Assembly (NCBI GenBank): GCA_965372715.1
Contig: CBDVDH010000040.1
Location: 1-36,697 of the forward strand
Source: an uncultured bacterium
GTDB lineage: Bacteria; B130-G9
Direction: 5' to 3'
Length of the DNA stretch: 36,697 nucleotides
The notes under the pieces were generated by a model that saw only the letters and a list, made by a program, of their open reading frames with translations, was not told where the DNA came from and did no database searches. Positions within the stretch are counted from its first letter, which is position 1, and every line of letters starts with the position of its first letter. Of this stretch, positions 15,586 to 36,603 are shown piece by piece. The translations under genes were made by a program, and so were the position numbers.

Positions 15586-18500
15586 TCAGCTGCGTCCCGA
15601 TGGACGGTATTCGTCTAAAGATAGACTGTGCTTTTTCAAAAGGCGGTAGAAGTTCTGCCTCGAAAGGCCGGCCATTCTCGCAGCCTGAGCCACATTGCCG
15701 CCAGAGGCTCTCAGCGCGGTCTTGAGTCGTGAAGCCTCGACGCCGTCCTTCACCTCTTTGAGTCGTGCAATCTGGCTGTCTTCCCTTCGTATCAGCCCGA
15801 GATCGGCATCAGTTATAGTGTTGCCAGTGGAAATCAGAATGGCCTTTTCGACCTTGTTCTGAAGTTCCCGCACATTCCCCGGCCAGCGGTGGCTCATCAT
15901 CCTTTCGACGGCCTTTACTGAGAACATCTTCTTTCTTTTATTGTATTTCTCTTTGCCCAAGCTGAGGAAGTGATTCGCGAGGCGAAGGATGTCATCCTCA
16001 CGCTCCCTAATTGGCGGTAATTCAAGATGAATCACGCTGAGACGATAATAGAGGTCTTCCCTGAATGAACCGTCCTTCACCGCGGTCTCCAGGTTGCGGT
16101 TGGTCGCTGCGATGATTCTGCAATCGATCTCTATCTCTCCTGCGCCTCCAATCCTCTCGATCGTTTTAGTCTCAAGGAATCTCAAGAGTTTTACCTGCAT
16201 ATCGAGCGAAAGTTCGGCAATCTCATCAAGGAAAATCGTGCCCTTGTCGCCATATTCCAGCCTTCCTCGCTTCTGCTTGTGAGCGCCGGTAAACGCGCCT
16301 TTCTCAAAGCCGAAAAGCTCCGCCTCGACAAGGTCTCTTGGGATTGCGCCACAATTGATGACTAAAAGCGGAGCATCTTTGCGAAGGCTTCTCCTGTGGA
16401 TCGCCTGGGCAAGCAGCTCCTTTCCGGTTCCGGTCTCTCCCGTGATCGATATCGTAACGTCTGTCTTGACGATCTTCACGGCCTCCCGGATAACTTCCAG
16501 CAGCCGCTCGCTTGCCCCAATGAGCTCCGGGAAGGCCGAGGCCTTTTCAGACCTGATGGTCGTGCCGGGAACGAGCATTGGCGGCACGCCTCGTTCGCCC
16601 GATAGCAGCCTCGTCCGATCGACCAGTTCCTTTATGTAGGCGTTCTGGCGTTCCCGCAGGACCGCGTCCTCGATCATTTTCGTCGCAAGCCGCTCAAGCG
16701 ATTGGACGGCGAGGAGGGGATGGTCGCTGGGCATCTCAAGAAGCTCGGTAGAATCAAGATAAATCGTCCCCAGTCGTTCCCGCTTGCCGCAGAGCGGGAC
16801 GCACATAATAGACCCACTAATGTCCAAATCTCGCAACCAGTCAGGCTTTTCGGCTCCGCGGCGCGTAAGGACGGGTGTTCCGGTCAAGTTAACGTGTCTG
16901 CTCACAGATGCGGGGCCGCCAAGCTGCTTGGGGTCCAGGACCCGACCGCTCTTATTCAGCGCGCGAGTCAGCCTCAGCCTGCCGCTATCCGCTCGTATTG
17001 CAATGCACCCTCTCTCAAAGGGGGTGGCTGCAAGTAGGTGAGATATGATGATGTCAGAGGCTTGTATCAACTCCATCCCTGTGCTACCGGTCGCTACACG
17101 CACCATCGAAGCCGCTACCTCCTCGTCGCCAGCCCAAGCGTCCTTTGGCTGAGTTCTCCCAGGCGCATCTTCGTCGAGCTCGAGCCTTATGGCGCCCCAC
17201 CGCATTCGGAATCGCTCCAAGCTCCTTTTCTTGGCAAAAAGTTCCTGTTTGTCTTCAGGAAGGGTCGCCGCTAAGGCCTCGAGTCTTGAGGCGGCGTGCG
17301 CATACGAAGTGTAGCTTTCGGCGAGGTTGTTCGTCTTGAGGTGATAGTCGCCCAAGGCCCAATAGAGCTGAAACTGTGGGAACGGCGAGTTGAGTTCTTT
17401 AATAGTTGAGCTCGCGCGCCGCAGGCAGTCTCCTGCATCATGGAGTCGCTCGTCCCGCACGTGAACGCGGGACAAAGTGATCAGGCACGAAGCCTCTTCA
17501 ATAGGTCTTCTCACCCCCTCAAGCAGTGACAGAACCTCGTTACAGAGCTTGACGGTCTTGTCCCTGTTTCCGGCCTCGAGGTGGGCTCTGGCAAGCCCCA
17601 ATATTGCTGACACTGCAGTCGATGGTTTTATCTCGTCCCTACGACTCAGAAGAAGCTCGAGGCTGAAAAAGGCCGATTCGATAGCGCCGAACTCCAAATG
17701 GTCCAGCCCGATTTGAAGTAGTGCGGTATCCGATATGAGAGGTTCGTTTTGGGACATCAGCGTCTGAAAAGCCTCATAATGCGCGCTCAGGGCCCCGTCA
17801 TAGTCCCCCATTTCCCTGAGTATCTCGCCTCGAGTGATCAAAGCCGCTGACCGGCCACCAATGTCCCCGATGATCTTCTTGATCGAGATCGCATCTTCGA
17901 TCCTCTCAAGTGAGGGGCCGATATCTCCCATCCAAAACAGACAACTGGCGAGATTCTGCAACGTCGTTGACATATTGCGACGGTCGCCGAGGCGCTGGAA
18001 CACAGAAAGCGCCTCCGAGAAGTGCTCCATCGCCAGCTTCGTTTCCGACTGCTCCGCGTGCGTCGAGCCGATACTGTTAAGTGTAATGGCTCGCATGTGC
18101 TCCTCGCCCACCTTCTCACAGATCTTTTTGGCCTGCGTGAAGCGTTCCTTAGCTCGCTCATAGTTCCCCTGCGCCCAATACACAGAGCCAATGTTATGGA
18201 GAATCGCGCCTCGCTCGCTCTCGTCCTTCATTTCTTCCGCGCATTCAAGCGCGGTATTGAAGCTCCGTAGGGCGTCGTTGAGTTTCCCCTGATGCCAGTA
18301 TGCTTTCCCTATGGCGTGGGCGGCCATGGCCTGATTACGGACATCTTTGTGCGCCGCGGCCACTGATTTGGCCTCGCCGAGCACCTCCAGGGCCCGATGC
18401 AATTCGCCCGTGAGCCGATGAACCTCCGCCATCCTCAGATTGCAGGCGCATTGGTCGGGTATAGACCTCGCGTCCTGCGCAAACGACAAGGCTTTGGCGT

Positions 18501-20856
18501 AATCTCTCAGCGCGCGCCTGTAGTCAGACAGTAGCAGGTTTAGGTCCCCGCGCCGGCAATAGAGCTTTGTGCCGTATGTGTCTCTCGCTGAATCCGAAAG
18601 ACCCAGCGCAGTCGCGCTGAACAAGTCAATCGCCTCTTCGAGCAACTCGGCGGCCCGGAAATAACAGCCGCCCGACTGGAAGACCGCCGACAGCGACTCG
18701 AGAAACTCCAATGAGCTCTGGTCCCCATCGGACTTCGCCAGATGATAATTCAGGTTCAGGTGCGACGGGACCTCAGGGCCTTCTCCTGAAGACAGTTGTT
18801 CCCAATACTTAGCAGCCCTTTGATGGATTTCGAGGATCCTCTCGTCAGGGACAGAGCCGAGGCAAGCTTGCTTGAAAAGCTCGTGCCCGAAATCCACGAA
18901 GACGGACGAGCCAGCGTGCTGCCAGACCAGAATCCCCTTCCGACAAAGCTCGTCAATGCGATGTATTGTTCCTTGGTCGTCTGCGTCAAAGACGGCCTCG
19001 ATCAGGTCTAACTTTCTGAACGCTGGAAGTACTGCGACCGCCTCAAGTAGCTTCTTGGAAGCGGTATCCAGAGCAGACGTCATAGCTTCGGCCAAGTGCT
19101 CTGCGTTTGGAATCTCCTCGTGGCCATCAAGAGCTTCGAGATGTCCCGCGGACCCATCATCAACCGGTGTTGAAATGCCTTTTGTCGAGCATATCAATCT
19201 CGCGCCCGCGGCGAGCCACGCGGGGCGCCCGCCAAAACGGTCATATAGAAACGATGAGAAATCTCGAAGGGGTTTCCTGGAGCCCACAATCGATTCTACA
19301 AGAAGCCTTGCCGGGTCCTCTTCAAGCACATCCAGGTTGATCGTTTCTATGATCGCTCTGGAGCCTAGGACATCAATGGAAGCGAGCGGGGGCCTCTGAA
19401 AGCGCACATCTGGCCCTTTGAGTGAGGGGCCTTGTCGTCCAAAGTCAGGAACCGTCAAGACCACAAACAGCCCACCCTTTGTGCGAGTCTTTTTTCTCGC
19501 CTTTTCTGCTAGCTGCCGCATCAGCTCGCTCAAGAGAGAAGCACCCGGCCCCAAAATGCTGTGTGCATCGTCGAGAACGAATACCCAGAATTCGCCCTTC
19601 ACCAGGTCCATCATCGCCTGAAGCACCTTTCGCCGAAGCGCTTCGGCTCCGGCCGGAAGATTAACGCCGCACAGATGAACGCTGCGCCTCGCCGGTCGCT
19701 TCAACAGCTTCAAAAGATCTGCCCGAACCGCGTCCGCTAAGGCCAGTAGAGCCTGGCTACGGTCCCTGTCAACATGCTCGGCGGCAGTTTCAAGGAGCTG
19801 CAAAACGTTGCAATACGGGTTGAGCGCCAAGAGAAAGCAAGAAGACCGTGCGACACGATAACCTCTCTCTTCGCATTCAAAGAGAAACTCCTGAGCAATC
19901 CTCGACTTGCCTGAACCCGTCTCCCCGACGACCTTTGCCGCTCCTACGCCCCGCCGACGAGCGTCCTCCATCGCAGTATGCAATCGCTTGAGGACATCGT
20001 TGCGGCCCACAAACTCCGCGCAGAGCGCAAACGGCACTTTCTCGGGCGCCCGAATCGAACCAATCTGCTTGGTCCCCAGAACCGGTCGCAGTAACTCCAG
20101 GAGCTCTATGCAGGATTGGGGTCTTTGCGAAAGACGCGGGCTCGTTGTTTCAAGAATCAGGTTGAGGACGTCGGACTGAATGTTCTTTGCATGAGTTCTG
20201 AGCCATTCGCCCGCCGCCTCCCGGTCGTGTGAGAGCAGTCCGGCCAGCGCCTCGTTGTCAACTTGAAGTCCAGTGAATAGCCCGAAAGCTAAAAGGCCAA
20301 AGCCGTAGAAATCGGACCGCACGTCAGCAAGGCGAGTCCTTCTCAGCTCGGGGGCCCAATAGATGCGGCCCGATGTGTTCCTGGGCTCCCACTGCTTGTA
20401 ACCCCAGAAGCCGAGGTCCAGAAGGAACAGCTTGCCCTCATCCGCGTCATACAGCACGTTGTTGGGTTTCAGGGCGCCGTGGAACTCACCAGAGGAGTGC
20501 AGCTCTGACAGAGCCGAGAATAGACAGGCCAGAAGCTTGGGGCGGGAATTGCGCCGAGCGGCAATTGCTTTGCCAAATGGCAACCCAGGCACGAATTCGC
20601 TCTCGAAGAACAGGACCTTGTTCTTCTTGCAAATCGGGCCGACCTTGGGAACGAACGGTAGATCGATGTTGCTCAACTGTTCGTGGCTGCGAAGAAAGGC
20701 CAACTTCAACGAGGGGTCGCACGACTCCTCGTCAAGCGCCTTCAGCACGACCTTCTTGCCGCTCTTGCTGTCGGTCGCGGCAAAGGTCCCGAGCACGCCC
20801 TTGTCGGCGAGCTGGCTCGACAATATGTACCTACCCGGAAACCAAGAGGCATCCAT
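15586..20856 (-). CDS. Multidomain sigma-54 activator: degenerate Ser/Thr kinase, STAND/AAA ATPase, TPRs, GAF, AAA+ activator, Fis-type HTH
   Basis: VVLK, HGALKPNN, DLG, WAPE, SDFYGFG; FVGR, GETGSGKS, FVLDDAH; TPR runs; GETGTGKE, ELFGFEKGAFTGA, FLDEI, DLYYRL, WPGNVRELQN, GNVAQAARMAGLSRQNFYR. Confidence 0.92.
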   Translation of the reverse strand: MDASWFPGRYILSSQLADKGVLGTFAATDSKSGKKVVLKALDEESCDPSLKLAFLRSHEQLSNIDLPFVPKVGPICKKNKVLFFESEFVPGLPFGKAIAARRNSRPKLLACLFSALSELHSSGEFHGALKPNNVLYDADEGKLFLLDLGFWGYKQWEPRNTSGRIYWAPELRRTRLADVRSDFYGFGLLAFGLFTGLQVDNEALAGLLSHDREAAGEWLRTHAKNIQSDVLNLILETTSPRLSQRPQSCIELLELLRPVLGTKQIGSIRAPEKVPFALCAEFVGRNDVLKRLHTAMEDARRRGVGAAKVVGETGSGKSRIAQEFLFECEERGYRVARSSCFLLALNPYCNVLQLLETAAEHVDRDRSQALLALADAVRADLLKLLKRPARRSVHLCGVNLPAGAEALRRKVLQAMMDLVKGEFWVFVLDDAHSILGPGASLLSELMRQLAEKARKKTRTKGGLFVVLTVPDFGRQGPSLKGPDVRFQRPPLASIDVLGSRAIIETINLDVLEEDPARLLVESIVGSRKPLRDFSSFLYDRFGGRPAWLAAGARLICSTKGISTPVDDGSAGHLEALDGHEEIPNAEHLAEAMTSALDTASKKLLEAVAVLPAFRKLDLIEAVFDADDQGTIHRIDELCRKGILVWQHAGSSVFVDFGHELFKQACLGSVPDERILEIHQRAAKYWEQLSSGEGPEVPSHLNLNYHLAKSDGDQSSLEFLESLSAVFQSGGCYFRAAELLEEAIDLFSATALGLSDSARDTYGTKLYCRRGDLNLLLSDYRRALRDYAKALSFAQDARSIPDQCACNLRMAEVHRLTGELHRALEVLGEAKSVAAAHKDVRNQAMAAHAIGKAYWHQGKLNDALRSFNTALECAEEMKDESERGAILHNIGSVYWAQGNYERAKERFTQAKKICEKVGEEHMRAITLNSIGSTHAEQSETKLAMEHFSEALSVFQRLGDRRNMSTTLQNLASCLFWMGDIGPSLERIEDAISIKKIIGDIGGRSAALITRGEILREMGDYDGALSAHYEAFQTLMSQNEPLISDTALLQIGLDHLEFGAIESAFFSLELLLSRRDEIKPSTAVSAILGLARAHLEAGNRDKTVKLCNEVLSLLEGVRRPIEEASCLITLSRVHVRDERLHDAGDCLRRASSTIKELNSPFPQFQLYWALGDYHLKTNNLAESYTSYAHAASRLEALAATLPEDKQELFAKKRSLERFRMRWGAIRLELDEDAPGRTQPKDAWAGDEEVAASMVRVATGSTGMELIQASDIIISHLLAATPFERGCIAIRADSGRLRLTRALNKSGRVLDPKQLGGPASVSRHVNLTGTPVLTRRGAEKPDWLRDLDISGSIMCVPLCGKRERLGTIYLDSTELLEMPSDHPLLAVQSLERLATKMIEDAVLRERQNAYIKELVDRTRLLSGERGVPPMLVPGTTIRSEKASAFPELIGASERLLEVIREAVKIVKTDVTISITGETGTGKELLAQAIHRRSLRKDAPLLVINCGAIPRDLVEAELFGFEKGAFTGAHKQKRGRLEYGDKGTIFLDEIAELSLDMQVKLLRFLETKTIERIGGAGEIEIDCRIIAATNRNLETAVKDGSFREDLYYRLSVIHLELPPIREREDDILRLANHFLSLGKEKYNKRKKMFSVKAVERMMSHRWPGNVRELQNKVEKAILISTGNTITDADLGLIRREDSQIARLKEVKDGVEASRLKTALRASGGNVAQAARMAGLSRQNFYRLLKKHSLSLDEYRPSGRS

Positions 20857-23313: not shown

Positions 23314-23432
23314 CGCCTCGCCCTTTGGTCTCAAAATAAATTGAAAAAGCGGAGACATCATAGCAGAACGCGCCGAGAGGCCAAAGTGGTTCTCGGCGGG
23401 GCGCAGGCAGCAGTTACTGGAGGGCTTTGGCG

Positions 23433-24848
23433 ATGCCAACAACGCACAAGATAATCTTCGGCGATAGCCGCTGGATGACGGAGGTGGGCGATGAGTCGGT
23501 GCACCTCGTCGTTACCTCGCCGCCATACTGGCAGCTGAAGGACTATGGCTCGAAGGGGCAGATCGGGTTCGATGACTCCTACGAGGACTACGTGAACAAC
23601 CTGAACCTCGTCTGGAAGGAGTGCGAGCGTGTCCTGAGCAAGGGCTGCCGACTCTGCGTCAACATCGGCGACCAGTTCGCCCGCGCCGCATACTACGGCA
23701 GATACAAGGTCATCCCAATCCGCACCGAAATCGTCAAGATGTGCGAGGCGCTCGGGCTCGACTACATGGGCGCCATAATCTGGCAGAAGGTTACCACCTG
23801 CAACACGACGGGCGGCGCCTCAATCATGGGCTCATATCCCTATCCGCGGAACGGTATCATTAAGCTGGACTATGAATTCATACTCATCTTCAAGAAGCTC
23901 GGGGAACCGCCCGAAGTCTCGGACGACGCAAAGAAGGCCTCGAAGCTCAGTTTGGCCGAGTGGAACGACTACTTCTACGGCCACTGGAACTTCCCCGGCG
24001 AGCGAATAACGAAAGGCCCTTCTGCAAAGAAAAAGAAGACGCCTCGTCCGGGATTGCCGAACGTCTCGTCGCCGTTCGGGGATGGTTCGGGGTTTCAAGT
24101 TTCAGGTTCAAAGTTGAAAGCTCCAGGCTCGGGGCTTGATCCCCAATCCCCAATCCCCAATCCCCAATCGCTTGAGCACATCGCGCCGTTCCCGGAGGAG
24201 CTCCCCAAGCGGCTCATCAAGATGTTCACCTTCGTCGGCGACACGGTGCTCGACCCGTTCCTGGGCAGCGGCACGACGACGCTCGCGGCCAAGAACCTCG
24301 ACCGGAACTCAATCGGCTACGAGATCAATCCCGACTACCGCCCCGTCATCGAGCAGAAGACCGGAGCTCGGGAGGCAGCGACTTTTGGAGGTGAGTCGGC
24401 GTTTCAGTTTGTCTCTCAAGAAGGCCCACAGTCGGATCTGAAGGTCGCCGTAAAGGCGCTGCCATACGTGTTCAAGGACGTTGTCAAGATGACGCGAAAG
24501 ATCGATCCGCGCAGGAGGACCTACGGCTCGCGCATCAAGGCGGGTCAGGCGCCGGACGACCGGCTCCGCAAGGTGAAGCGCATCCTGGGGCCGTGGCTCT
24601 TGGAGCTGGACGACGAGACGATGGTCCACCTGATCGGCTACCGCCCGATCGAGCGCAAGGAGGCGGAGGTTACCGCCCTGCTCGAGGGGCTCACAAAGGG
24701 CAAGAAGGTCTATCTACGAGAGTCCAAGCGCTTTAAGTTCGACGACAAGGGCCGCCTCCTGGCCTACGTCTATCTCGACGACGACACCTTCGTCAACGCA
24801 GAGCTGATCAAGTCCGGACTTGTTGACATCGATACGACGTATGAGTGA
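23433..24848 (+). CDS. Amino (N4-C/N6-A) DNA methyltransferase, beta class, fused to a C-terminal thermonuclease (SNase)-like domain
   Basis: VTSPPY precedes DPFLGSGTT and GYEINP; H.APFPEEL; C-terminal HLIG...KGKKVYL...GRLLAYVYL.D.TFVNAELIKSG; GGAGG RBS. Confidence 0.88.
   Translation: MPTTHKIIFGDSRWMTEVGDESVHLVVTSPPYWQLKDYGSKGQIGFDDSYEDYVNNLNLVWKECERVLSKGCRLCVNIGDQFARAAYYGRYKVIPIRTEIVKMCEALGLDYMGAIIWQKVTTCNTTGGASIMGSYPYPRNGIIKLDYEFILIFKKLGEPPEVSDDAKKASKLSLAEWNDYFYGHWNFPGERITKGPSAKKKKTPRPGLPNVSSPFGDGSGFQVSGSKLKAPGSGLDPQSPIPNPQSLEHIAPFPEELPKRLIKMFTFVGDTVLDPFLGSGTTTLAAKNLDRNSIGYEINPDYRPVIEQKTGAREAATFGGESAFQFVSQEGPQSDLKVAVKALPYVFKDVVKMTRKIDPRRRTYGSRIKAGQAPDDRLRKVKRILGPWLLELDDETMVHLIGYRPIERKEAEVTALLEGLTKGKKVYLRESKRFKFDDKGRLLAYVYLDDDTFVNAELIKSGLVDIDTTYE
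24092..24169. repeat. Heptamer repeats inside the methyltransferase gene
   Basis: GTTTCAA GTTTCAG GTTCAAA GTTGAAA GCTCCAG at 24092-24126 and 4 x ATCCCCA at 24139-24166. Confidence 0.85.
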
Positions 24849-24944: not shown

Positions 24945-26099
24945 TTAGGTGGCTGTATTCGCAACTTCAGGGAAAGTGACCGAATCGCTTCCGCTGAGGC
25001 CTCTTGCTGTCTCTGAGCTGAATCTAGCTACGCGAACTTGCTCGTCTTTTTCAAGTTCTTTCAAGGCTTTTCTATACTGGGGCTCAGTTACAGGGGTGTC
25101 CTCATAGGACTCTTCTATTATGTCCATAAACCGGACTGTCCGACCAGAAAACCGCCGTACCAAGTATTCCTTGAGGCTGCCGCTGTCCTCCTCAAAAAGC
25201 CTTAGCTGGTTACGATAATAGACATCCTCTGGCCCGAGGTACGCGAACATGCCCTTGGGCCCTTGTTTATGCATTATATCCTTCATAATCTTCAGCCCTC
25301 TGAAGTGGTTAGTGGCGTGGATGAGATAGTAAAGAGTCTCGCATCTGTCATCTGTACAGACACGAAATGCCCAAGCATGCTTCACCTTGGCGTCCTCTTT
25401 CAAACGTCTAATGTAGAAATCCCTTAGCGTCTGATGTTGCTTCCCTGGGTCACACCTTTCCAACAGCCGGCGCCAATCGCTGGTCCCAAACAATTCGTCG
25501 AATCTATGGCTAAGATCCTCGTGGCCGAGAAAACGATTGATGTCGCGGGTCATGAATGTGAAAAAAACCTCCGTCCGTTTCATCGAAAGGATCTTTTTGA
25601 CAAGATCAAAAGGCACCCCCTTGAAGCCAAACGGGTCGATGAAAAAGAAGGACGGGGCTATGTCGCCGCGCAGATTCTGCAAGATCTCGTGCACAACGGG
25701 TGCGAATTCCTGATTGCGGAGATCGACTTTGCAGGCATCCACGTTTTTCAGCCTTGTCTGTTCCCGCGTTACTACCGATTCCAGATTCCGGAAATTGTCC
25801 GGGTCTTTCTCAATCAGGAAGCAGACAAACTCAGCAAACATCGGCTTCTGCGGATCCTCCTTACTTCGTTCCAGGTACTCGTCCGCGAGCCGCAATGCGA
25901 TGACAGGCGAACCTGGGGTAGGCTCTCCCTCGACGACATATTCACCCCGTCCTGCAAACGTATCGAAATAACATATTCTCTTGTGCCATTTCCAAAGAAT
26001 CCTAATCCAGGCCCATAAGTACTTGGATAAGATTTCATGCTTGACCCTAGTATGTTGGCTGTATACCCACTTGTCTGGATCGCTGTCCTTCAGTGCCAA
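24945..26099 (-). CDS. tcmP: Three-Cys-motif partner protein TcmP (SAM-dependent methyltransferase-like fold)
   Basis: HT..KH.IL..YL.AW, YFDTFAGRG, GSP.IAL, IEKD, FFFIDPFG, YYLIHATNH.RG...MK; GAGGAGG-N7-TTG start. Confidence 0.85.
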   Translation of the reverse strand: MALKDSDPDKWVYSQHTRVKHEILSKYLWAWIRILWKWHKRICYFDTFAGRGEYVVEGEPTPGSPVIALRLADEYLERSKEDPQKPMFAEFVCFLIEKDPDNFRNLESVVTREQTRLKNVDACKVDLRNQEFAPVVHEILQNLRGDIAPSFFFIDPFGFKGVPFDLVKKILSMKRTEVFFTFMTRDINRFLGHEDLSHRFDELFGTSDWRRLLERCDPGKQHQTLRDFYIRRLKEDAKVKHAWAFRVCTDDRCETLYYLIHATNHFRGLKIMKDIMHKQGPKGMFAYLGPEDVYYRNQLRLFEEDSGSLKEYLVRRFSGRTVRFMDIIEESYEDTPVTEPQYRKALKELEKDEQVRVARFSSETARGLSGSDSVTFPEVANTAT

Positions 26100-26128
26100 G
26101 TCAGGTCCTCCTCATGACTTGCAGGGGA

Positions 26129-27136
26129 TTACCAAACACAGTTACATTTTATCTTCGTGTAGTCCATGCCGAGTGTATCCCACATTCTAACGGTTTCCTT
26201 GCAGAGGGCGATCTTGTCGTAGCTGTACTTGGTTCTTAGGGATTCGATCATTGCTTGATACATCTCGAGTCGGACCTGAAATGCGATTTTCTTGCCCCAA
26301 TTCGAGCGTTCAGAGAGATATTCCGTCCAAGACTTGTCTGAGCTGCCGTTTATTGTGCTCTGAAGTCCACGCAGTGATCCAAGCGTGATTCGCTCTGGCC
26401 GGAAACAGGAGAAGATGTTCTCCAGGAGGGTCAAGTATTTGTCCTCCCAATTGGGGACCGGAATGAGAGGGTCTATCCTCAAGCGTACCGTAAACGCATG
26501 CTTTGCCAAGCGCCTCGCTGCCTCAATTCTCTGAGGAACAGTTGGGGCTAACATCTCCCATTTCTCCGCCACACTCTCCGCGTTCAAACTAAAGCTGACA
26601 ATGACTTGATCATGACTTGGCAGTTCAAGCAGGTGTTCTATTCTATCCGATTTTGTCACAAGTAGCACTTTGTGGCGCTTCTGCGACTCGAACAACGGGG
26701 TGATGGATTTGACAAAGGATTCGGCACAGTTCTCCTGCATAAGTGAATCAGCGATCTCGCCTGTGTTCAGGATCTCGGGTGGGCTTGAACTCTTGAGGAA
26801 CGCGCGCACGTGTTGCTCGACCTTCTGCCTGTCCTTGAATCTGGGGCTGGTCTTGGTGGGCAAGAACCTGAATGTCCCCTTTAGATAGCACCACGCACAA
26901 TCGAACGGACAGCCGTAGGCCCACTTCAGCTCAAGGAAATGAGGGCACACCACATCAGCCGGTTTGCTTGGCAACGGTGTTTTGTCAAATCTGACGATAA
27001 TCGAACCATCAGCTACTCTGGCTACGAGGTCTCTGAAAGAATCATCGAGCCTCTGTAACCTGGAGAACACTACCTTCGGTGGGTGCGTTAGGGGGGAGGG
27101 GGATTGAGCCTGTAGTTTAAGGATCTTCAAGGACAT
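26129..27136 (-). CDS. Spore photoproduct lyase-like radical SAM protein
   Basis: GCPFDCAWCYL, TGEIADSL, LVTKS, SFSLN, RI.AA, RIDP, LCKET, C-terminal CNC; GGAGG-N7-ATG at 27136. Confidence 0.85.
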   Translation of the reverse strand: MSLKILKLQAQSPSPLTHPPKVVFSRLQRLDDSFRDLVARVADGSIIVRFDKTPLPSKPADVVCPHFLELKWAYGCPFDCAWCYLKGTFRFLPTKTSPRFKDRQKVEQHVRAFLKSSSPPEILNTGEIADSLMQENCAESFVKSITPLFESQKRHKVLLVTKSDRIEHLLELPSHDQVIVSFSLNAESVAEKWEMLAPTVPQRIEAARRLAKHAFTVRLRIDPLIPVPNWEDKYLTLLENIFSCFRPERITLGSLRGLQSTINGSSDKSWTEYLSERSNWGKKIAFQVRLEMYQAMIESLRTKYSYDKIALCKETVRMWDTLGMDYTKIKCNCVW

Positions 27137-27296
27137 CTCTTTTCCTCCGTTTGCCCTGTGCCTATTGGCAGATGATACCACTGAGCCCAAAAAATCCCGT
27201 AACAGGAGCGCCTGGCACCGGATGTCTTAAGATCACAAAAGAGAGAATAACAGGACGCCCGTTAAAAGCCAAACATCTGTGGGCGGGCCCAAACGG

Positions 27297-28658: not shown

Positions 28659-28842
28659 CAGGTCCTCCGAATCTGCGAGTGCGGTTCATGTTCCTTGGTT
28701 TCCTCCCTCGTATCAATCTATTCAAAGAGCCTGGACGAGTCAATCGTTCAAAGCAGGCTGACTTTTTGCGGCGATTGAGTAGTATTGCACAAATGTTGAT
28801 CTGACCTTGGGCCCTATTTGCTCTGTAATCGAGGAGAACCAA

Positions 28843-31800
28843 ATGCTAAAGAAAACGTTGTTTGTGGTGTTATTCTGCCTTGTGGCTTACGTTTTGACGA
28901 TCGCTATCGTCCCCGAAGGCGTCGAGCCGCCGCTTCTAAAGCTGCGGCTTTTGACTTTCAACCCGGCGGAGATTGACGCGCTCGGAATACCGGACGAGCT
29001 TCTGCTCCAGTCGTATCCGCCGGGCGCCGATGGCCTCTATATCGTCCAATTCTCGGGCCCCGTGGAGCCTGAGCAGAGGGAGGCGCTGCTCGATGCGGGC
29101 GCGGGCATTGTCGGCTATCTGCCTGATTACGCCTATCTCGTTACGATGGCAGACGAATGTTGGGACCAAGTGTCTCAGTGGCCTCACGACGGCGCGTGGG
29201 ACGCGGCCTGGGCGGGGCTTTATCAGCCAGCCTTCAAGATAAGTCCAAGCCTGCTTCAAGTTTCTTCGGGCGATGATTCCGTGGAGATCATTGTCCAGCA
29301 ATATGGCGAAAGCCGCGAGTCGCTCGACTCGCTGGTTGATGCGGTGTTTGCGAGCGAGGCGCGGACGGACATCGTGGGAGAATCCGCGTTCAAGACCACT
29401 CAGCGGCTTAGGGTCAGGGTCTTTCGTGACGATCTGTATCAGTTTGTGACCGAAATAGCCCGCCGTCCGAATGTCCTGTGGATTGAGCCGTATTACGTCC
29501 CTGTTCTGCTGAACGACAACTCTCGCTGGATATGCCAGTCTTATTCGTCAGGCGCCATGCCGGTGTGGGACAATGGCATCCACGGCGAAGGGCAGACAGT
29601 AGGTATATCCGATACGGGTCTCGACGCCGATAGTTGTTTCTTCTACGACTCGTCGGAGGGACTTCCGGATTCGTCGGTCAACAACGACCAGCGAAAGACC
29701 ATCGTGTATTACGACCTTGCGGGCGACGGCGGCTGGGATAACTACGGTCACGGGACACACTGCGCGGGCACGATAGCGGGAGATAACTCCGCGACGTTGG
29801 AGGGATACGACACCGGCGATGGAATGGCGTATTGCGCCAAGCTTGTCGTGCAGGACGTCGGGCTCGGCGGATCGCTGGTTGGCCTACCGGACAACCTGAA
29901 CACGCTGTTTGGTCAGGCAAGAAACGCCGGTGCGCGAGTGCATTCCAACAGCTGGGGCACCAGCTACAACGGCTATAGCGCTTCTTCACAGGACGTGGAC
30001 GAGTTCATGTGGGACAACCCCACGTTCCTGATCGTCTTCGCTGCCGGTAATAGCGGCCCGGACGTGCATACGGTTGGGTCCCCGGCGACGGCGAAGAACC
30101 TCGTTACGGCGGGCGCTGCGCAGAACGCTTATTCTGGGCAGGACCCCGAGAATGTGGCCTCTTTCAGCAGCAACGGTCCGACCGAAGATGGCCGCGCGAA
30201 GCCCACGGTGTGCGCACCGGGGCAGACGGTTCAGTCAGCTTCTTCCGATCACAATGTCTATACCTACAATTGTAGCCTAACACATATGCAGGGCACGAGC
30301 ATGGCCTGTCCCACGACGGCCGGATTGGCCACGCTTGTTCGACAGTACTATACCGACGGCTATTATCCCACTGGCTCTGCGACACCGGCCGACGAGTTCA
30401 CGCCGAGCGCCGCGCTTTTGAAGGCGACGCTTGTCAATTCCGGGATGAACATGACCGGCGATTACACCGACGACCCAATTCCCAGCACGGGTCAGGGGTG
30501 GGGGCGCATCCTTCTTGACGACGCGCTGTACTTCGTCGGCGATCAATGCCGTATGGATGTCTATGACGTGTCACCGGGGCTTTCAACGGGACAGGATGAC
30601 ACCTATCAGATAAAGTGCCCGGGCAACTGCAAGCTTGAGATCACGCTTGTTTGGACCGATTATGAGTCGACGCTTTCTGCCGGCGCCAACCTCGTCAATG
30701 ACCTTGACCTTACAGTTGAGGCGCCCGATTCGACTACTTTCAGGGGTAACAACTACTCCGGTGGGAGCTCGGCCCCAGACGGTTCCTACGACCGGCTGAA
30801 CGTCGTGGAATGTGTCCAGATAGATGACCCGAGTCCCGGCACGTATCAGGTAACTGTGACAGCCCACAACACACCAATGGGACCCCAGCCATACGCGCTC
30901 GTTGTCACGGGTGGGTGCTCCAACGAACCGCCGGAACTCTCCAACGGCGACGTCTCCCCCGACTCTGGCGTCGAGACAGATACGTTCACCTATTCGGTGG
31001 ATTATTTCGACGAGGACGGCGACAGGCCTCGCACGAAGAACGTCTATATTGATGGGCAGCCGCAAGCGATGTCGCTTCTGACCGGGGCCGAGAGCGACGG
31101 CAGATACTCATACGAGACGCTTCTGCCGTCGGGCACGCACAACTTCTACTTCTACTACGACGACGGCCGAGGCGACTACATAAGATTGCCTGCAACGGGA
31201 GCTTATTCGGGACCGAGCGTTGATGGTTCTCCGCCCCAATCGACGTGCTGGTGTGACGAGTATTCGAGCGCTCCGATAGCGGTGGACTTCTCGGCGTCCG
31301 ACGCCGAAAGCGGCGTGCTGAGGACCGACCTTTACTACAGATACGAATCAGGCGGCTGGACCGACTCCGGCGAATCACTGGGAGGCAACGCAGGGACGTT
31401 TACGTTCAATCCCCCGTACGGCGAGGGAATCTACTATTTCTATACAATAGCGACCGATGCGGCTGGCAATCAGGAGGAGCCCCCGGCAGAGCCCGACGCG
31501 CAGGTGTTCCACGATGCGGGCGCGCCCAGCTCGAGCTGCACTGGGCCTGATTGCGCCTCGAGCACAGTCGAGATCGATTTTACTGCGAGCGATGGCACCG
31601 GCAGCGGCGTCGATCAGACCTATTTGTGGTATCGGTATGAGAGTGGCTCTTGGCGCCAGCACGACGAGCCGATGAGCGGCGAGTCGGGGACATTCTCGTT
31701 CGCGCCTCAAGACGGAGACGGTACGTATTCCTTCTACACAATCGCCGCGGACAGAGCCGGCAATCAAGAGTCGGCGCCGGCTAGTCCAGATACTCAAGTC

Positions 31801-34800
31801 GAGGTGGAGACAGTTCCTCCTCAGTCGAGCTGCACGGCCCCCCGGATATCAAATGAGCCGGACATCTCGATTGATTACACGGCGTCAGATGCGCAATCCG
31901 GCCTCGAGGCCGTGCGGCTCTGGTATAGATACGGGACTGGCGCGTGGAACGACACCGGCGAAGATCGAACGGGCTCTTCGGGCGTCTATGATTTTCACTT
32001 CCAAAGAGGCGACGGCAATTACTACTTCTACACGATAGCGAGGGATGTCGCCGGGAATGTTGAGGCCCCACCCGTGGGTCCCGACACGTTCACGATCTTC
32101 GACACCGCCAAGCCGGTATCGTTCTGCACAGCGCCTGAGTGCACCCCGTCCGGCGCCATAACGATTTGGTTCGAGTCCAGCGACGAGGGGACAAACATCG
32201 AAGGCACCAGGCTTTATGCGAGATTCGGGGACGGCGAGTTCGAGGACACCGGCCTTTCGGAGCAAGGGACGTTGGGGCAGTTCGATTACGTGGCCGATCA
32301 GGGCGAGGGAACCTACTATTTCTACAGCCTGGCAGAGGACAAGGCAGGAAACGTGGAGGACCCGCCCCCAAGCCATGACACCGCCACTGTCCTCGATTCT
32401 ACTGAACCGAGCTCCGTGTGCGCCTCGCCCGAGTTCGCATCGACCATCTTCACGGTTACTTTCGACGCGGAGGACTGGGGATGCGGGATCAACCACACGA
32501 GTCTCTTCGTCAGCTTCCAGGGCGGCGCCTTCGCAGAGTGGGGCGACCCAGTCGAGGGCGACTCGGGCGCGTTTGAGTTTGCGGCTGCCGAAGGGGACGG
32601 CCCATACGGCTTCTACACACTGGCACTCGATCGGGCCGGCAACGAGGAGACCCCACCCGCGACCGAGGATACGATAACGATCGTGGATACCGTGCCAGCG
32701 AGTTCCTCCTGCACGTGTCCGCCGTACTCGACTCATGCAAGCATCGCTGTCGAGTTCCTCGCCTCCGACAATGGCTCCCAGGTGACATCGACAACGCTGT
32801 GGTATCGGGTCGCTGGTGGCGATTTCGCGGACTCCGACCTCACGATGCCGGGTGGCTCAGGCACATTCGAGTTCAGCGCCCCGGACGGCGAGGCACGATA
32901 CGAGTTCTACACAATCGCGACGGATAGGGCTGGCAATCGGGAGGGAAGGCCATCGGAGCCGGACGCCGCCTGCACGTTTGATGCGACCGCGCCCCAGTCA
33001 TCCTGCATCTCGCCAGCTGCCGCGAACGAGTCCCCCATTACTATCAGCTTCACGGCGAGCGATTCGCTCTCTGGCATCGCGCAGACGGAGCTCCTGTTCG
33101 GTTTCGAGGGAGGGGACTGGGAGTATTCGGGCCTCCAGGCGACAGGCACGTCAGGTGAGTTTGCATTCGCGTCGCCTTACGGCGCAGGCGCTTATGATTT
33201 CGCTGCGGTCTGCTCCGACCTCGCAGGGAACGTGGAGGGGTTTTCAGAAGTGGCCGACTGCTTCACGTTCTTTGATGAGAACATGCCAATCTCAAGCTGC
33301 TCATCTCCGGCGGTTGCGACCGGCACTTCGATTGATGTATCGTTCAGCGCGAGCGGAGGCCTAAGCGGCCTTCAGCAGGTTGAACTCTGGTTCACCTTTG
33401 AGGGAGGCGCCCCGCAGGACAGCGGGCTTGTGGCGAACGAGACGGAGGGCCGTTTCGAGTTTGAGGCAGACCTCGGCGATGGCCAATACGGCTTCTTCGT
33501 GATCGCTACCAACAATGATGGCATCCGCGAGCAGGAGCCGACAGCTCCCGATTCGGTTACGCTGCTCGACTCAACCCCGCCGGATACAACCTGCGACGCG
33601 CCGCAGTTTGCGACTGAGTCGTCAATCACGGTCGGCTTCTTCTCGACCGACGAGCATTCAGCGATCGGCAGCGCCTCGCTGTATTACCGAATCGACGGCG
33701 GCGAGTGGGAGCTCTTCGACACCATCGACGGTGCCGCGTGGGGAGCATTCTCGTTCGCGTTTCCGGGACCGGAAGGCGTCTATGACTTTGACGTTGCGGC
33801 TGTTGACGGTCTCGGCAATGCAGAGTCGATGGGCGGCGTGGCCTGTTCGACAACCGTCTATGATGTTACCCCACCAATCTCGAACAGTGTCTCGCCGGCG
33901 TATGCGATTCAGTCAGCGATTGAGGTTCAATATGAGGCCTCAGACAACCTCTCGGGCGTCGCGTTCGTTGACCTTTACTATCAGTTTGACGGTGGGAATT
34001 GGGAGTATTTCGGGACGAATTCCGACGATGCTGTCGGGACCTTTGATTTCAATCTTGCGCTCACTGAGGGTCTCTGGGGCTTCGCGACCGCGGCGCACGA
34101 CCCGGCCGGAAACGTCGAGCAGCTACCGGGTGACGCCAAGACCCAGACGGCCGTCGATTGGACCCCGCCCAGGGTCACCGTCTCGACCCTCGCGTGGGCA
34201 AGCATGAGCACGCTCGACATCGCCTTCGAGGCGACCGACGCCGTCTCCGGTTTTGCCGAGGCAACGTTGTGGTATCGGTTCGATCAAGGGGATTGGCGCC
34301 TGACTGACGTTACATTCGCGCCGCAGAGCGATATGCTGCAATTCGTATTCGCGGATGGTGAAGGCCCGTATGATTTCTGGGTTGAGGTGAATGATTCCGC
34401 TGGCAACACCACGGGCGAGCCTCAGGAGGCCCAGGCGAGCACGATTTACGACGCCGCGCCGCCGACCTCAAGCTGCACAGCGCCGGAGTATGCCACCGAC
34501 GCTCATATCACCGTATCATTCCAGGCGGGCGATGCGCTTTCTGATCGGGTCTTCACGGAGCTGCATTACAGTTTGAGCGGGGCTCAGTGGGTGAAAATGC
34601 CACAGGTTGTCGAAGGTTTAGACGGGGAGCTCGAATTCGCGGCCCCGGCCGATGGCAGATATGAGTTCAAGACGATCTCAACCGACCTGGCGGGCAATTC
34701 GGAACCAGGCGGCAAGACGCCGGGTTGCGCCACTATTCTCGATACCCACGCGCCTTCATCCACGTGCGAGGCGCCGGACCTGGTCACGTCCACGCTGGTT

Positions 34801-36603
34801 ACGATCGCCTTTTCGGCAAGCGACGAGACGAGCGGGGTCTTGCGGACGGCGCTCTGGGTCAGTTACGAGGGTGGCGAGTTTGGTGATACTGGCCTCGCGG
34901 TCGAGGGGGACACAGGTGAGTTTGATGTTGCGCTCGTGCAGGGCGACGGGGCGTATTCGTTCTACACGGTCTGTGAGGACGTGGCGGGCAACGTTGAGCC
35001 TGAAAAGGACACGCCGGACACGAGTCTGATACTCGATACGAGCGCTCCCGATTCGACGTGCGAAGGCCCGCAGTATGCCACGAAAACCTTCATATTGACG
35101 TTCACGGCTGGGGAGAGCGCATCGGACATCGACAAGGTCTCGCTTTACTACAAGTTCGAGGACGGAGCATGGGAGGACACGGGCCTCTTCGTTAGGGCGG
35201 CCTCGGGTGGGTTCACATTCACCCCCGAGGACGGCGATGGCTACTACTACTTCGCAACGCGCGCCCGGGATGTGGCGGGCAACGAGGAGGCGCCGCAGCA
35301 GCAGGCGGACTGCGTTACGATCGTTGACACCGAGCGGCCCACATCAACATCGAGCTGCGACGAGCTGACGAACCAGCCGCGAGTTTCGATTGCGTTCGAG
35401 GCGTCCGACACGTTGAGCGGCGTCGCCTCGGTTGATCTCTACTACTCGCGCGAAGGGGGATTGTTCTCCCCGACCGGGTACTCGTCGGACGAGGCGTCGG
35501 GAACGTTCGATTTTGAGTTGTTGGGTGGCAATGGTCTGTATGTCTTCTACACTGCTGCGACCGATAACGCCGGAAACACCCAGCCGGGACCATCGGCGCC
35601 TCATTGCTCGGTCCTATACGATTCTGTGCCGCCGGGGACGTCGTGCGAGTCGCCGGATTCAACCTCCAGCCCTTCGGTGGAGGTTTTTTTCATGGCGCTG
35701 GATGCGGGCAGCGGCGTTGTCGAGACAAGGCTTCTATATCGCCTGTCAGTGGCCTCTACGTGGTCCAATTCGGGCCTCACCATGCCCGATGGGGCAGGCA
35801 CGTTTGTGTTCGTCTTCCCCGATGGGGAGGGCCTCTACGAGTTCAGAGCCGTTTCGACGGACAGGGCTGGCAACGAGGAGCCTGCGGGCGACACCCCGTG
35901 CTCCACGACGCTGTATCAGCCAGAAGCGCCTGAGCCTGACCTGTGGGTCTCGGCGGAGTCTCACGATTTCGGCGCGCTTCAGGTAGGGAACGTGCGTGCC
36001 TTCAGACTCGTCGTCCGCAACGACGGCGCCGCCGAACTTTCTGTCGATGCCGTGGAGACCAGCGGCGACCCATTCTACTTCGTCGGTCCAGGTTCGTTCA
36101 CTCTCCCGCCGGGTGGGGAGACGGGCCTCAATGTCTTCTATCTGTGCGGCAGCGACATAGCCATGCCTGGGCACATTGACATTCGGTCGAACGATCCGGA
36201 CACGCCCGAGAAGCGGATAGGGCTTTCAGGTTCCGTGTCCCAGGATGACACGCCGTTTGTCACGGTCGTAACCGACAGGGCCGAGTATCATCTCGGTGAT
36301 ACCATCTGGGCGCTTTATACCGTCGGCAACCCCGGGCCTGATGTCCCGGTCGATGCATACGCGGCGGTTCAACTGCCCGGCGACCCGAACCTCTATTTCT
36401 TCCCGAGCTTCGGGACCTCGCCGGCGCCGATTTCATTGACACTGCCGCAGGGCGCATACATCCCGCCAACAATGCTCCTCACGCTCGAACTGGCCAATCC
36501 TATCCCAACGGGTGAATACGTTTTCTATGCCGCCCTATGCGTGCAGGGGTCTGATTTCGAGCTGATTAGCGAGCTATCGGTGGCCACCTTCAGCTACAGG
36601 TAG
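28843..36603 (+). CDS. Giant secreted S8 subtilase (KP-43-like) with 16 tandem beta-rich repeats
   Basis: GAGGAG-N6-ATG; signal peptide; catalytic ISDTG, HGTHCAGT, AAGNSG, GTSMACP; QGWGR; jelly-roll TLVWTD/VNDLDL; repeats; late Ig-like domain (HDFG...RNDG...SNDPDTP). Confidence 0.93.
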   Translation: MLKKTLFVVLFCLVAYVLTIAIVPEGVEPPLLKLRLLTFNPAEIDALGIPDELLLQSYPPGADGLYIVQFSGPVEPEQREALLDAGAGIVGYLPDYAYLVTMADECWDQVSQWPHDGAWDAAWAGLYQPAFKISPSLLQVSSGDDSVEIIVQQYGESRESLDSLVDAVFASEARTDIVGESAFKTTQRLRVRVFRDDLYQFVTEIARRPNVLWIEPYYVPVLLNDNSRWICQSYSSGAMPVWDNGIHGEGQTVGISDTGLDADSCFFYDSSEGLPDSSVNNDQRKTIVYYDLAGDGGWDNYGHGTHCAGTIAGDNSATLEGYDTGDGMAYCAKLVVQDVGLGGSLVGLPDNLNTLFGQARNAGARVHSNSWGTSYNGYSASSQDVDEFMWDNPTFLIVFAAGNSGPDVHTVGSPATAKNLVTAGAAQNAYSGQDPENVASFSSNGPTEDGRAKPTVCAPGQTVQSASSDHNVYTYNCSLTHMQGTSMACPTTAGLATLVRQYYTDGYYPTGSATPADEFTPSAALLKATLVNSGMNMTGDYTDDPIPSTGQGWGRILLDDALYFVGDQCRMDVYDVSPGLSTGQDDTYQIKCPGNCKLEITLVWTDYESTLSAGANLVNDLDLTVEAPDSTTFRGNNYSGGSSAPDGSYDRLNVVECVQIDDPSPGTYQVTVTAHNTPMGPQPYALVVTGGCSNEPPELSNGDVSPDSGVETDTFTYSVDYFDEDGDRPRTKNVYIDGQPQAMSLLTGAESDGRYSYETLLPSGTHNFYFYYDDGRGDYIRLPATGAYSGPSVDGSPPQSTCWCDEYSSAPIAVDFSASDAESGVLRTDLYYRYESGGWTDSGESLGGNAGTFTFNPPYGEGIYYFYTIATDAAGNQEEPPAEPDAQVFHDAGAPSSSCTGPDCASSTVEIDFTASDGTGSGVDQTYLWYRYESGSWRQHDEPMSGESGTFSFAPQDGDGTYSFYTIAADRAGNQESAPASPDTQVEVETVPPQSSCTAPRISNEPDISIDYTASDAQSGLEAVRLWYRYGTGAWNDTGEDRTGSSGVYDFHFQRGDGNYYFYTIARDVAGNVEAPPVGPDTFTIFDTAKPVSFCTAPECTPSGAITIWFESSDEGTNIEGTRLYARFGDGEFEDTGLSEQGTLGQFDYVADQGEGTYYFYSLAEDKAGNVEDPPPSHDTATVLDSTEPSSVCASPEFASTIFTVTFDAEDWGCGINHTSLFVSFQGGAFAEWGDPVEGDSGAFEFAAAEGDGPYGFYTLALDRAGNEETPPATEDTITIVDTVPASSSCTCPPYSTHASIAVEFLASDNGSQVTSTTLWYRVAGGDFADSDLTMPGGSGTFEFSAPDGEARYEFYTIATDRAGNREGRPSEPDAACTFDATAPQSSCISPAAANESPITISFTASDSLSGIAQTELLFGFEGGDWEYSGLQATGTSGEFAFASPYGAGAYDFAAVCSDLAGNVEGFSEVADCFTFFDENMPISSCSSPAVATGTSIDVSFSASGGLSGLQQVELWFTFEGGAPQDSGLVANETEGRFEFEADLGDGQYGFFVIATNNDGIREQEPTAPDSVTLLDSTPPDTTCDAPQFATESSITVGFFSTDEHSAIGSASLYYRIDGGEWELFDTIDGAAWGAFSFAFPGPEGVYDFDVAAVDGLGNAESMGGVACSTTVYDVTPPISNSVSPAYAIQSAIEVQYEASDNLSGVAFVDLYYQFDGGNWEYFGTNSDDAVGTFDFNLALTEGLWGFATAAHDPAGNVEQLPGDAKTQTAVDWTPPRVTVSTLAWASMSTLDIAFEATDAVSGFAEATLWYRFDQGDWRLTDVTFAPQSDMLQFVFADGEGPYDFWVEVNDSAGNTTGEPQEAQASTIYDAAPPTSSCTAPEYATDAHITVSFQAGDALSDRVFTELHYSLSGAQWVKMPQVVEGLDGELEFAAPADGRYEFKTISTDLAGNSEPGGKTPGCATILDTHAPSSTCEAPDLVTSTLVTIAFSASDETSGVLRTALWVSYEGGEFGDTGLAVEGDTGEFDVALVQGDGAYSFYTVCEDVAGNVEPEKDTPDTSLILDTSAPDSTCEGPQYATKTFILTFTAGESASDIDKVSLYYKFEDGAWEDTGLFVRAASGGFTFTPEDGDGYYYFATRARDVAGNEEAPQQQADCVTIVDTERPTSTSSCDELTNQPRVSIAFEASDTLSGVASVDLYYSREGGLFSPTGYSSDEASGTFDFELLGGNGLYVFYTAATDNAGNTQPGPSAPHCSVLYDSVPPGTSCESPDSTSSPSVEVFFMALDAGSGVVETRLLYRLSVASTWSNSGLTMPDGAGTFVFVFPDGEGLYEFRAVSTDRAGNEEPAGDTPCSTTLYQPEAPEPDLWVSAESHDFGALQVGNVRAFRLVVRNDGAAELSVDAVETSGDPFYFVGPGSFTLPPGGETGLNVFYLCGSDIAMPGHIDIRSNDPDTPEKRIGLSGSVSQDDTPFVTVVTDRAEYHLGDTIWALYTVGNPGPDVPVDAYAAVQLPGDPNLYFFPSFGTSPAPISLTLPQGAYIPPTMLLTLELANPIPTGEYVFYAALCVQGSDFELISELSVATFSYR
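31222..35915 (+). repeat. 16 x ~98-aa protein-level repeats
   Basis: Recurring P.S.C, F.ASD..SG, L.YR...G.W, G.F.F, G.Y.FYT.A.D.AGN.E; 16 AGN-type motifs counted, two of them variant. Confidence 0.88.

Follow-up and report, generated by a model that had tools for sequence, protein, structure and literature searches.

A radical SAM enzyme of the SPL family paired with TcmP in an uncultured bacterium: a candidate DNA-modification module

The gene pair and its genomic slot

The DNA analysed here, called the window throughout, comprises all 36,697 nucleotides of contig CBDVDH010000040.1 (assembly GCA_965372715.1, forward strand) from an uncultured bacterium of the GTDB lineage B130-G9. Its minus strand carries two adjacent genes, one for a radical S-adenosylmethionine (SAM) enzyme of the spore photoproduct lyase (SPL) family, denoted rSAM below, and the other, tcmP, for a protein with a predicted methyltransferase (MTase) fold; this pair, a candidate DNA-modification module, is the subject of the present report. 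The features of the locus are as follows:

26129..27136, minus strand: SPL-family rSAM gene, 335 aa, with ATG at 27136 and TAA at 26131-26129
27148-27143, minus strand: Shine-Dalgarno sequence GGAGGA of the rSAM gene, 6 nt 5' of the ATG, read from the sequence
26888..26911, minus strand: Cx3Cx2C radical-SAM cluster motif CPFDCAWC (Cys76, Cys80, Cys83), 100% conserved in 104 members
26100..26128, minus strand: intergenic spacer of 29 bp between rSAM and tcmP, read from the sequence
26113-26106, minus strand: tcmP Shine-Dalgarno sequence GAGGAGGA, within the spacer, 6 nt 5' of the TTG
24945..26099, minus strand: tcmP gene, 384 aa, TTG start at 26099, with a predicted MTase-fold domain and a C-terminal winged helix
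25944..25964, minus strand: TcmP motif I, D46-x-F-A-G-x-G52, the predicted SAM-binding loop (40-sequence alignment)
25626..25637, minus strand: TcmP motif IV-like D155-P156-F-G158 (40-sequence alignment)
25029..25199, minus strand: GMT-like winged helix-turn-helix (wHTH) of TcmP, residues 301-357 (PF22560, 2.2e-9)
27195..27277, minus strand: three terminator-like hairpin sites from the pgi stop to the rSAM start (consensus scan only)
23427-24848, plus strand: orphan N6/N4 DNA MTase gene (N6_N4_Mtase), convergent to the pair (PF01555, 3.6e-41; PADLOC MTase_II, 2e-164)

An earlier note on this DNA had described a two-gene unit with a 29-bp gap, a strong ribosome-binding site for each gene and a higher AT content than pgi and the OPT gene. 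The unit is borne out by the exact coordinates and by both Shine-Dalgarno sites, which were re-read; the TTG codon is taken as the tcmP start because homologues align from residue 2 onward. The base composition agrees as well, since the GC content of the pair is 0.5005 (rSAM 0.504, TcmP 0.495) vs 0.612 for pgi, 0.603 for OPT, 0.589 for the MTase and 0.567 for the genome (3.56 Mb), and GC at third codon positions is 0.59-0.62 vs 0.77-0.82 in the neighbours. Only 0.75% of 6,698 pair-length segments of the genome are as GC-poor (z = -3.0), and the pair is compositionally foreign to its host. The terminator-like hairpins would set the pair apart from pgi, and a promoter scan returned one sigma-70-like site, on the wrong strand and in a count not above that of shuffled sequences. 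Around the islet, direct and inverted repeats were short and at chance level, and no att-like borders were found. Among public sequencing runs, none was listed as containing the pair, and this includes RNA runs.

The slot occupied by the pair varies among relatives. OPT and the MTase gene are kept adjacent in G001, G002 and G003 at 74-92% DNA identity, and the pair is absent from these three assemblies; however, the assembly of G001, which belongs to the same genus, breaks inside the slot, and therefore absence of the pair from that genome is not proven. Between the MTase and pgi, G003 holds a TrmO-like gene and a class I MTase, G001 holds the same two genes as far as it is assembled, and G002 holds a 186-aa open reading frame (ORF) of unknown function; in L001, from a Coatesbacteria metagenome-assembled genome, the TrmO-like gene and class I MTase are joined by a TcmP-rSAM fusion, and the window has rSAM and TcmP only. 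The TrmO-like gene (165 aa) and the class I MTase (~220 aa) lie at L104:2945-4098, L103:2364-4008 and L001:1778-2948, and both have been lost from the slot in the genome of the window. Judging from a matching 695-aa ORF alone, L001 and G005 probably represent one genome. Identity between the window and L001 is 76% for rSAM and 81% for the MTase vs 32% for the TcmP part, and the parts of the module have therefore been shuffled. The rSAM gene occurs in one of six same-family genomes. Because of this patchy occurrence, the GC deviation and the varying slot content in G001-G003, the pair is regarded as mobile, and horizontal transfer would have brought it into a variable slot flanked by a core DNA MTase and pgi. 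The instance in the window is an ordinary but clean, swapped-in accessory cassette.

The MTase gene itself was considered as a member of the islet and rejected: it is syntenic with OPT in G001-G003, where the pair is lacking, and its GC content is host-like, and it is thus a core orphan enzyme outside the islet. Hence, the earlier note was right that a DNA MTase lies next door, but this neighbour is weaker support for its reading of the pair than it implied. Counting against the rejection, the orthologous MTase of L001 is likewise convergent to the TcmP-rSAM fusion, and the repeated adjacency of MTase and module makes a functional tie possible. At its C-terminus the enzyme also bears an SNase-like domain (PF00565, 7e-6), and a low-complexity insert spans approximately residues 195-245.

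Partnership and properties of the two proteins

The neighbourhood of rSAM was scanned with one genome per species, which gave 111 rSAM relatives and 80 loci that were kept. A TcmP-like protein stands at 61 of these loci by an iterated TcmP profile (47 by single-sequence search): it is fused N-terminally to rSAM in a single ORF at 31 loci, lies directly upstream at 25 and directly downstream, in the order of the window, at 5 (L009, L034, L038, L049, L058). The remaining loci lack TcmP, with rSAM at a contig edge in 7 and with upstream DNA present in 12. Similarly, protein databases contain 427 long rSAM relatives, and 55 of 120 among the matches listed combine PF22560 with the Pfam SPL family PF20903; among the matches listed for long relatives of the window's TcmP, all 120 of 120 carry PF20903 and are TcmP-SPL fusions. 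The pairing of rSAM with TcmP is not a matter of chance.

The same partnership was viewed from the side of TcmP in an independent sample of 251 diverse genomes, which has 35 TcmP sites spread over 34 genomes. Its neighbour is DUF5131 at 23 sites, an adjacent or fused member of the SPL-like family at 6 (in G000, G005, G161, G149, G101 and G158) and neither at 6. These counts agree with three expectations of the earlier note, namely that homologues of the radical SAM protein would be recurrently linked to tcmP (31 fused and 30 adjacent loci), that TcmP is usually paired with DUF5131, and that an SPL-like enzyme can take the partner position; given the 6 of 35 sites, an SPL-family enzyme does therefore take the place of DUF5131 in a regular minority of cases.

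The assignment of rSAM to the SPL family, also proposed in that note, was upheld by profile search, in which PF20903 matched residues 90-261 of the 353-aa ORF at 57.6 bits (1.3e-15; gathering cut-off 27), and by the CPFDCAWC motif. In a family alignment of 104 members at 27-62% identity, Cys64, Cys312, Cys331 and Cys333 are 99-100% conserved, and Glu127, which sits in the motif NTGEIADSLM, is 95% conserved; the four extra cysteines probably form a second metal or Fe-S site. A sequence search (phmmer) against the PDB returned SPL as the sole solved relative (E 4e-6, 17% identity). In these alignments, in which the chains of the C140S and C140A variants served to place the residue, the hydrogen donor Cys140 of the G. 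thermodenitrificans SPL corresponds to Glu127, and Tyr98 to Tyr84. The AlphaFold model of rSAM is moderate (predicted local distance difference test score, pLDDT, 67; predicted template-modelling score, pTM, 0.70; residues 69-101, the cluster region, below 50). Its top Foldseek match in the PDB is SPL 4fhc (E 2.7e-9, template-modelling score 0.51), followed by DesII at 2.7e-4, an E-value about five orders of magnitude higher.

Identity with true SplB was considered and rejected. The score against the SplB equivalog TIGR04070 is 71.9 bits, below the cut-off of 400 (that against TIGR03886 is 30.1, cut-off 437.55), the catalytic Cys is replaced by Glu127, four cysteines are additional, and the host genome (95.9% complete) contains no small acid-soluble spore protein (PF00269) and no Spo0A (TIGR02875) above cut-off. 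The protein is therefore an SPL-fold enzyme and not a spore photoproduct lyase, and the clustering with true SplB that the earlier note named as counter-evidence is not seen. The family is large, with 1,614 clusters (50% identity) at E <= 0.001 and 155 at E <= 1e-30, and it ranges over bacteria and archaea; the hosts include Dehalococcoidia, Zixibacteria, WOR-3, ANME-1 and Methanophagales.

TcmP matches TIGR04474 at 219 bits (cut-off 53) over profile positions 1-262 of 263. In an alignment of 40 sequences at 18-54% identity, D46 and G52 of motif I are invariant and F48, A49 and G50 at least 90% conserved; in the second motif, DPFG, which we take to be a motif IV of the Trm1 type, D155 and P156 do not vary and G158 is kept by at least 90% of the sequences. 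The wHTH family PF22560 is found in 23 of the 40. The AF2 model is confident (pLDDT 86.5, pTM 0.86), and its Foldseek matches are class I MTases at E ~3e-6 to 1e-5, including the COMT type; the tRNA m2,2G enzyme Trm1 and the rRNA m6A enzyme RlmJ lead (E ~3e-6 to 5e-6), and TYW2 is also present. Judged from this model, and in line with the earlier note, TcmP has a class I MTase fold, in which motifs I and IV look intact, followed by a winged helix. In PADLOC, it matches the candidate-system models PDC-M30A (2e-40) and PDC-M41A; no PADLOC model exists for rSAM, which reached only PDC-M41B at E 0.007.

These fold matches raise the alternative that the pair modifies tRNA or rRNA in the manner of the MTase and radical SAM steps of wyosine synthesis. 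Apart from Trm1, RlmJ and TYW2 as the best structural matches, 3 of the 40 TcmPs show weak Pfam matches to the RsmD-type family Cons_hypoth95, the slot in relatives holds a TrmO-like gene and a class I MTase, and mnmA, mnmE, queH, a miaB-like gene and alaS are neighbours at several loci. However, such tRNA-related neighbours do not, by impression, appear to exceed expectation for common housekeeping genes, and the sole solved relative of rSAM acts on DNA. Moreover, RNA modification enzymes are not typically accessory and spread by horizontal movement, as this pair is, and the family is fused to DNA specificity subunits and DNA N6-adenine restriction-modification (R-M) enzymes, with R-M neighbours at 22 of 80 loci. 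A role in RNA modification is thus considered very improbable.

Restriction-modification context and possible functions

The attachments of rSAM were followed through 251 neighbouring ORFs, taking up to 2 per side at TcmP loci and, elsewhere, every ORF within 3 kb that reached 90 aa. Three proteins (P0188, P0156, P0174) unite two Methylase_S (HsdS specificity) domains with rSAM, and two more (P0195, P0226) combine HSDR_N_2, N6_Mtase/Eco57I, two Methylase_S domains and rSAM in one chain, an architecture that L040 splits over three genes. At 8 loci (L012-15, L017, L024, L026, L028), the gene immediately upstream of TcmP-rSAM encodes a Type IIG R-M enzyme. The R-M count of 22 loci, a raw figure without a background rate, covers N6_Mtase, N6_N4_Mtase, Methylase_S, ResIII, CfrBI, Type ISP, HsdR and GmrSD; HicA, PIN, HEPN/NTase, AbiEii, SLFN-AlbA and Cas3 genes are likewise among the neighbours. 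Where TcmP is missing, the rSAM domain is often attached to or beside other DNA-targeting parts, while no MTase neighbour is detectable at L068 (yidC-rSAM-mnmE), L031 and L020. Taken together, the fusions to HsdS and Type IIG parts and the R-M neighbourhoods fit a DNA-modification or defence role, as far as gene context can indicate one.

Carriage by phages was also seen. Three phage contigs in IMG/VR (L083, L084, L085), apparently of one lineage, carry rSAM and a paralogue, with two N6_N4 DNA MTase genes 3.5 kb upstream of the paired rSAM genes; at L084:2300-14397 the tandem SPL-like genes (321 and 370 aa) accompany capsid and cement genes, and TcmP is lacking. In Gordonia phages, the canonical TcmP+DUF5131 pair lies between the immunity repressor and the integrase. 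For instance, in Gordonia phage Easley (L106, MH155867.1 25937-35046) gp39, a TcmP with wHTH annotated as 'methyltransferase', directly follows the immunity repressor gp40, gp38 is DUF5131 (3.5e-102) and convergent to gp39, and the integrase is 1.5 kb off; these neighbours place the canonical pair in the lysogeny module.

Based on this body of evidence, the pair is read as a DNA-acting radical-SAM/methyltransferase module from the R-M or defence gene pool, most likely writing a base modification, and in our judgement the chances for and against this reading are about evenly balanced. In the proposed mechanism, rSAM and TcmP would form one functional unit, in which TcmP would bring the module to DNA via its winged helix and the base pocket of its MTase fold, would present the base and may methylate an exocyclic amine. 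The rSAM protein would then cleave SAM to the 5'-deoxyadenosyl radical and carry out radical chemistry on the flipped or methylated base, with a second metal or Fe-S site that its four extra cysteines would hold. A covalently modified base would result and serve as a self-mark or protective mark, much as the SPL-like gp53 of phage M6 helps to install a thymidine hypermodification (PMC8989533). A bolder proposal, advanced tentatively and somewhat against our own expectation, is that of a new oxygen-independent, sequence-directed DNA chemistry: an SPL-fold rSAM with a second metal or Fe-S site might act on a base presented, and perhaps first methylated, by a TcmP- or HsdM-type MTase, leaving an uncatalogued base modification or a radical-based restriction lesion.

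The same context would also suit a minimal R-M-like defence, whereby TcmP methylates self DNA and rSAM damages unmarked DNA by a strand break or cross-link. At most loci, rSAM has an MTase-fold partner (TcmP, or N6_Mtase with HsdS), and the fused modification and restriction architecture would resemble Type IIG enzymes; furthermore, TcmP-like proteins occur in the PADLOC candidates PDC-M30A and PDC-M41A, HicA, PIN, HEPN/NTase, AbiEii and SLFN-AlbA stand among the neighbours, and in Easley the TcmP gene comes after that of the immunity repressor and converges with DUF5131, a position typical of prophage defence genes. Nevertheless, to our knowledge no radical-SAM nuclease exists, P0195 and P0226 already hold a nuclease-type HSDR_N_2 beside rSAM, and a DNA-damaging effector would be hard to tolerate at the three loci where rSAM has no MTase neighbour. 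The known chemistry of SPL-fold enzymes and M6 gp53 is directed at bases and not at the backbone (PMC8989533). This form of defence is therefore held to be unlikely.

Other loci lie in a repair or housekeeping setting. At L033:1402-8102, a TcmP-rSAM fusion is placed between recA and recX-alaS in an otherwise conserved repair and housekeeping row, and RecR, DprA-like and RadC-N genes are neighbours at a few loci. Such positions speak for a DNA repair pair, in which rSAM reverses a base lesion without oxygen (e.g., aberrant MTase alkylation) as a substitute for AlkB and TcmP is the lesion- or DNA-binding subunit. SPL, the nearest solved relative, is itself a direct-reversal repair enzyme; by their record titles, the hosts belong largely to anaerobic lineages (Dehalococcoidia, Zixibacteria, WOR-3, ANME-1 and Methanophagales), and co-location with MTases would suit the repair of their off-target products. 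Core repair genes, however, do not show the patchy, mobile distribution and foreign GC of this pair, and the enzyme has lost the catalytic Cys of SPL and gained four new ones. In addition, fusion to HsdS specificity domains makes little sense for lesion repair, and TcmP retains catalytic-looking MTase motifs, all of which makes repair distinctly unlikely, if somewhat less so than RNA modification.

In the Dehalococcoidia, at least 15 loci place the module between an mtnA-like gene of the IF-2B family and a PNP_UDP_1 gene resembling that of methylthioadenosine (MTA) phosphorylase, sometimes with a Type IIG gene (L002-L008, L013, L014, L016, L019, L024, L028, L074, L077; also L047 and L078). This position would mark either a hotspot of insertion or a connection with the salvage of 5'-deoxyadenosine and MTA, which are by-products of SAM enzymes.

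Several observations weigh against the reading of the pair as a DNA-modifying module. The nearest structural relatives of TcmP are RNA enzymes and not DNA enzymes, and the predicted structure of rSAM is of moderate quality, with its weakest part at the cluster. Many loci lie among housekeeping genes only (recA-recX, yidC-mnmE, pyr genes, mtnA-mtnP), and among the neighbours of the pair in the window (OPT, MTase, pgi) no nuclease partner is present, the sole match being the SNase-like tail of the MTase, which leaves a self-mark without an evident use at this locus. Phage carriage is rare, with 3 loci in 2.9 million viral contigs, and a tblastn search of 50,697 phage records with the window's rSAM gave 3 weak matches, all in uncultured 'Bacteriophage sp.' Finally, the lysogeny-module position in Easley points to defence in general over modification in particular.

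As of 2021, action on DNA was known for only two kinds of radical SAM enzyme, namely SPL, which repairs it, and gp53 of phage M6, which takes part in its hypermodification (PMC8989533). The present family is large, is found in both bacteria and archaea and has physical fusions to the sequence-specificity parts of R-M systems. Were it to write or erase a DNA mark, it would constitute a new enzymatic route to DNA modification, would explain the role of the TcmP-type proteins found in 34 of the 251 sampled genomes and would open a new approach to how uncultured lineages tell self from non-self; should the bolder proposal above hold, these would be the first radical-SAM-dependent R-M-like systems. 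As candidate tools, enzymes of the rSAM-TcmP kind may also be of use in site-directed DNA chemistry.

Two further genes of the window were inspected by eye. The ORF at 15586-20856 (minus strand; 1,756 aa) has a kinase-like N-terminus, a TPR-rich middle, a sigma-54-activator-like AAA+ region and a C-terminal HTH, and that at 28807-36603 (plus strand; 2,598 aa) has a subtilase-like N-terminal region and about twenty repeats of ~95 aa with the motif 'FYTIA-D-AGN-E'.

Comparison with known systems

Among characterised enzymes, SplB (TIGR04070; PDB 4FHC and related entries) resembles rSAM in its radical SAM TIM-barrel fold, the position of the Cx3Cx2C motif and the Tyr98/Tyr84 pair. It differs in sequence (17% identity), in having Cys140 where rSAM has Glu127, and in lacking the four extra cysteines; moreover, rSAM has no spore context and mostly has TcmP or R-M parts as its partners or fusion domains. 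The SplB-like photolyases that occur with DUF4130 and uracil-DNA glycosylase (PMC3765255) belong to a different context. The best functional precedent is gp53 of phage M6, an isomerase of the SPL-like radical SAM type that takes part in thymidine hypermodification (Lee et al. 2021, PMC8989533), since it installs a DNA modification instead of repairing DNA. However, the window's rSAM has no match in named phages (50,697 records) and its partner is an MTase-fold protein, and no genes of the 5-hydroxymethyldeoxyuridine pathway (kinase, amino-acid transferase, pyridoxal-phosphate decarboxylase) were found among the 251 scanned neighbour ORFs.

Type I and Type IIG R-M systems (HsdS target recognition domains; Eco57I/MmeI-like N6_Mtase) are related in that the family is fused to or lies downstream of such parts, which implies sequence-directed action on DNA. 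The pair in the window, by contrast, has neither a target recognition domain nor a nuclease, and the sole R-M-type gene nearby is the core orphan MTase. We know of no characterised R-M system with a radical SAM component, and none was found in the literature. A biochemical logic of this kind is established for RNA, where methyl transfer from SAM is coupled, in Trm5 followed by TYW1 and likewise in RlmN/Cfr, with 5'-deoxyadenosyl radical chemistry at one and the same base; an auxiliary cluster is present in TYW1, and RlmN/Cfr rely on extra catalytic Cys. Yet these enzymes belong to other radical SAM subfamilies and act on RNA, and the analogy to the rSAM-TcmP pair suggests a mechanism only.

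The closest counterpart is the TcmP+DUF5131 pair (TIGR04474 + PF07505; PADLOC PDC-M41). A literature search, in which supplements were not covered, met TcmP only in gene tables and PDC-M30 and PDC-M41 only in listings, and found no account of the function of TcmP, DUF5131, PDC-M30, PDC-M41 or the SPL-like clade, and the host genome contains no DUF5131 (PF07505). In 20 genomes (L107-L126), the 'three-Cys motif' of DUF5131 is Cx6Cx2C followed by Tyr, plus one invariant Cys near the C-terminus. Alignment of the rSAM family with DUF5131 by hhalign was not significant (probability 0.44%, E 0.14), although this non-significant local alignment lines up CxxC-Y, N-x-x-x-(A/S)-D and H-x-x-x-(L)-T-K. The case for a common origin of the two TcmP partners is therefore left to the PADLOC match at E 0.007 and to RadicalSAM.org, which groups DUF5131 (5-2) and SPL (5-3) in one megacluster (PMC9477430). 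Both kinds of pair share the same TcmP family, often the same wHTH, and the form of a two-gene unit; they differ in that the partner in the window has Cx3Cx2C where DUF5131 has Cx6Cx2C, and in that fusion of TcmP to its partner is common in the SPL-like family. The pair described here is a variant of an already known yet uncharacterised kind of gene pair.

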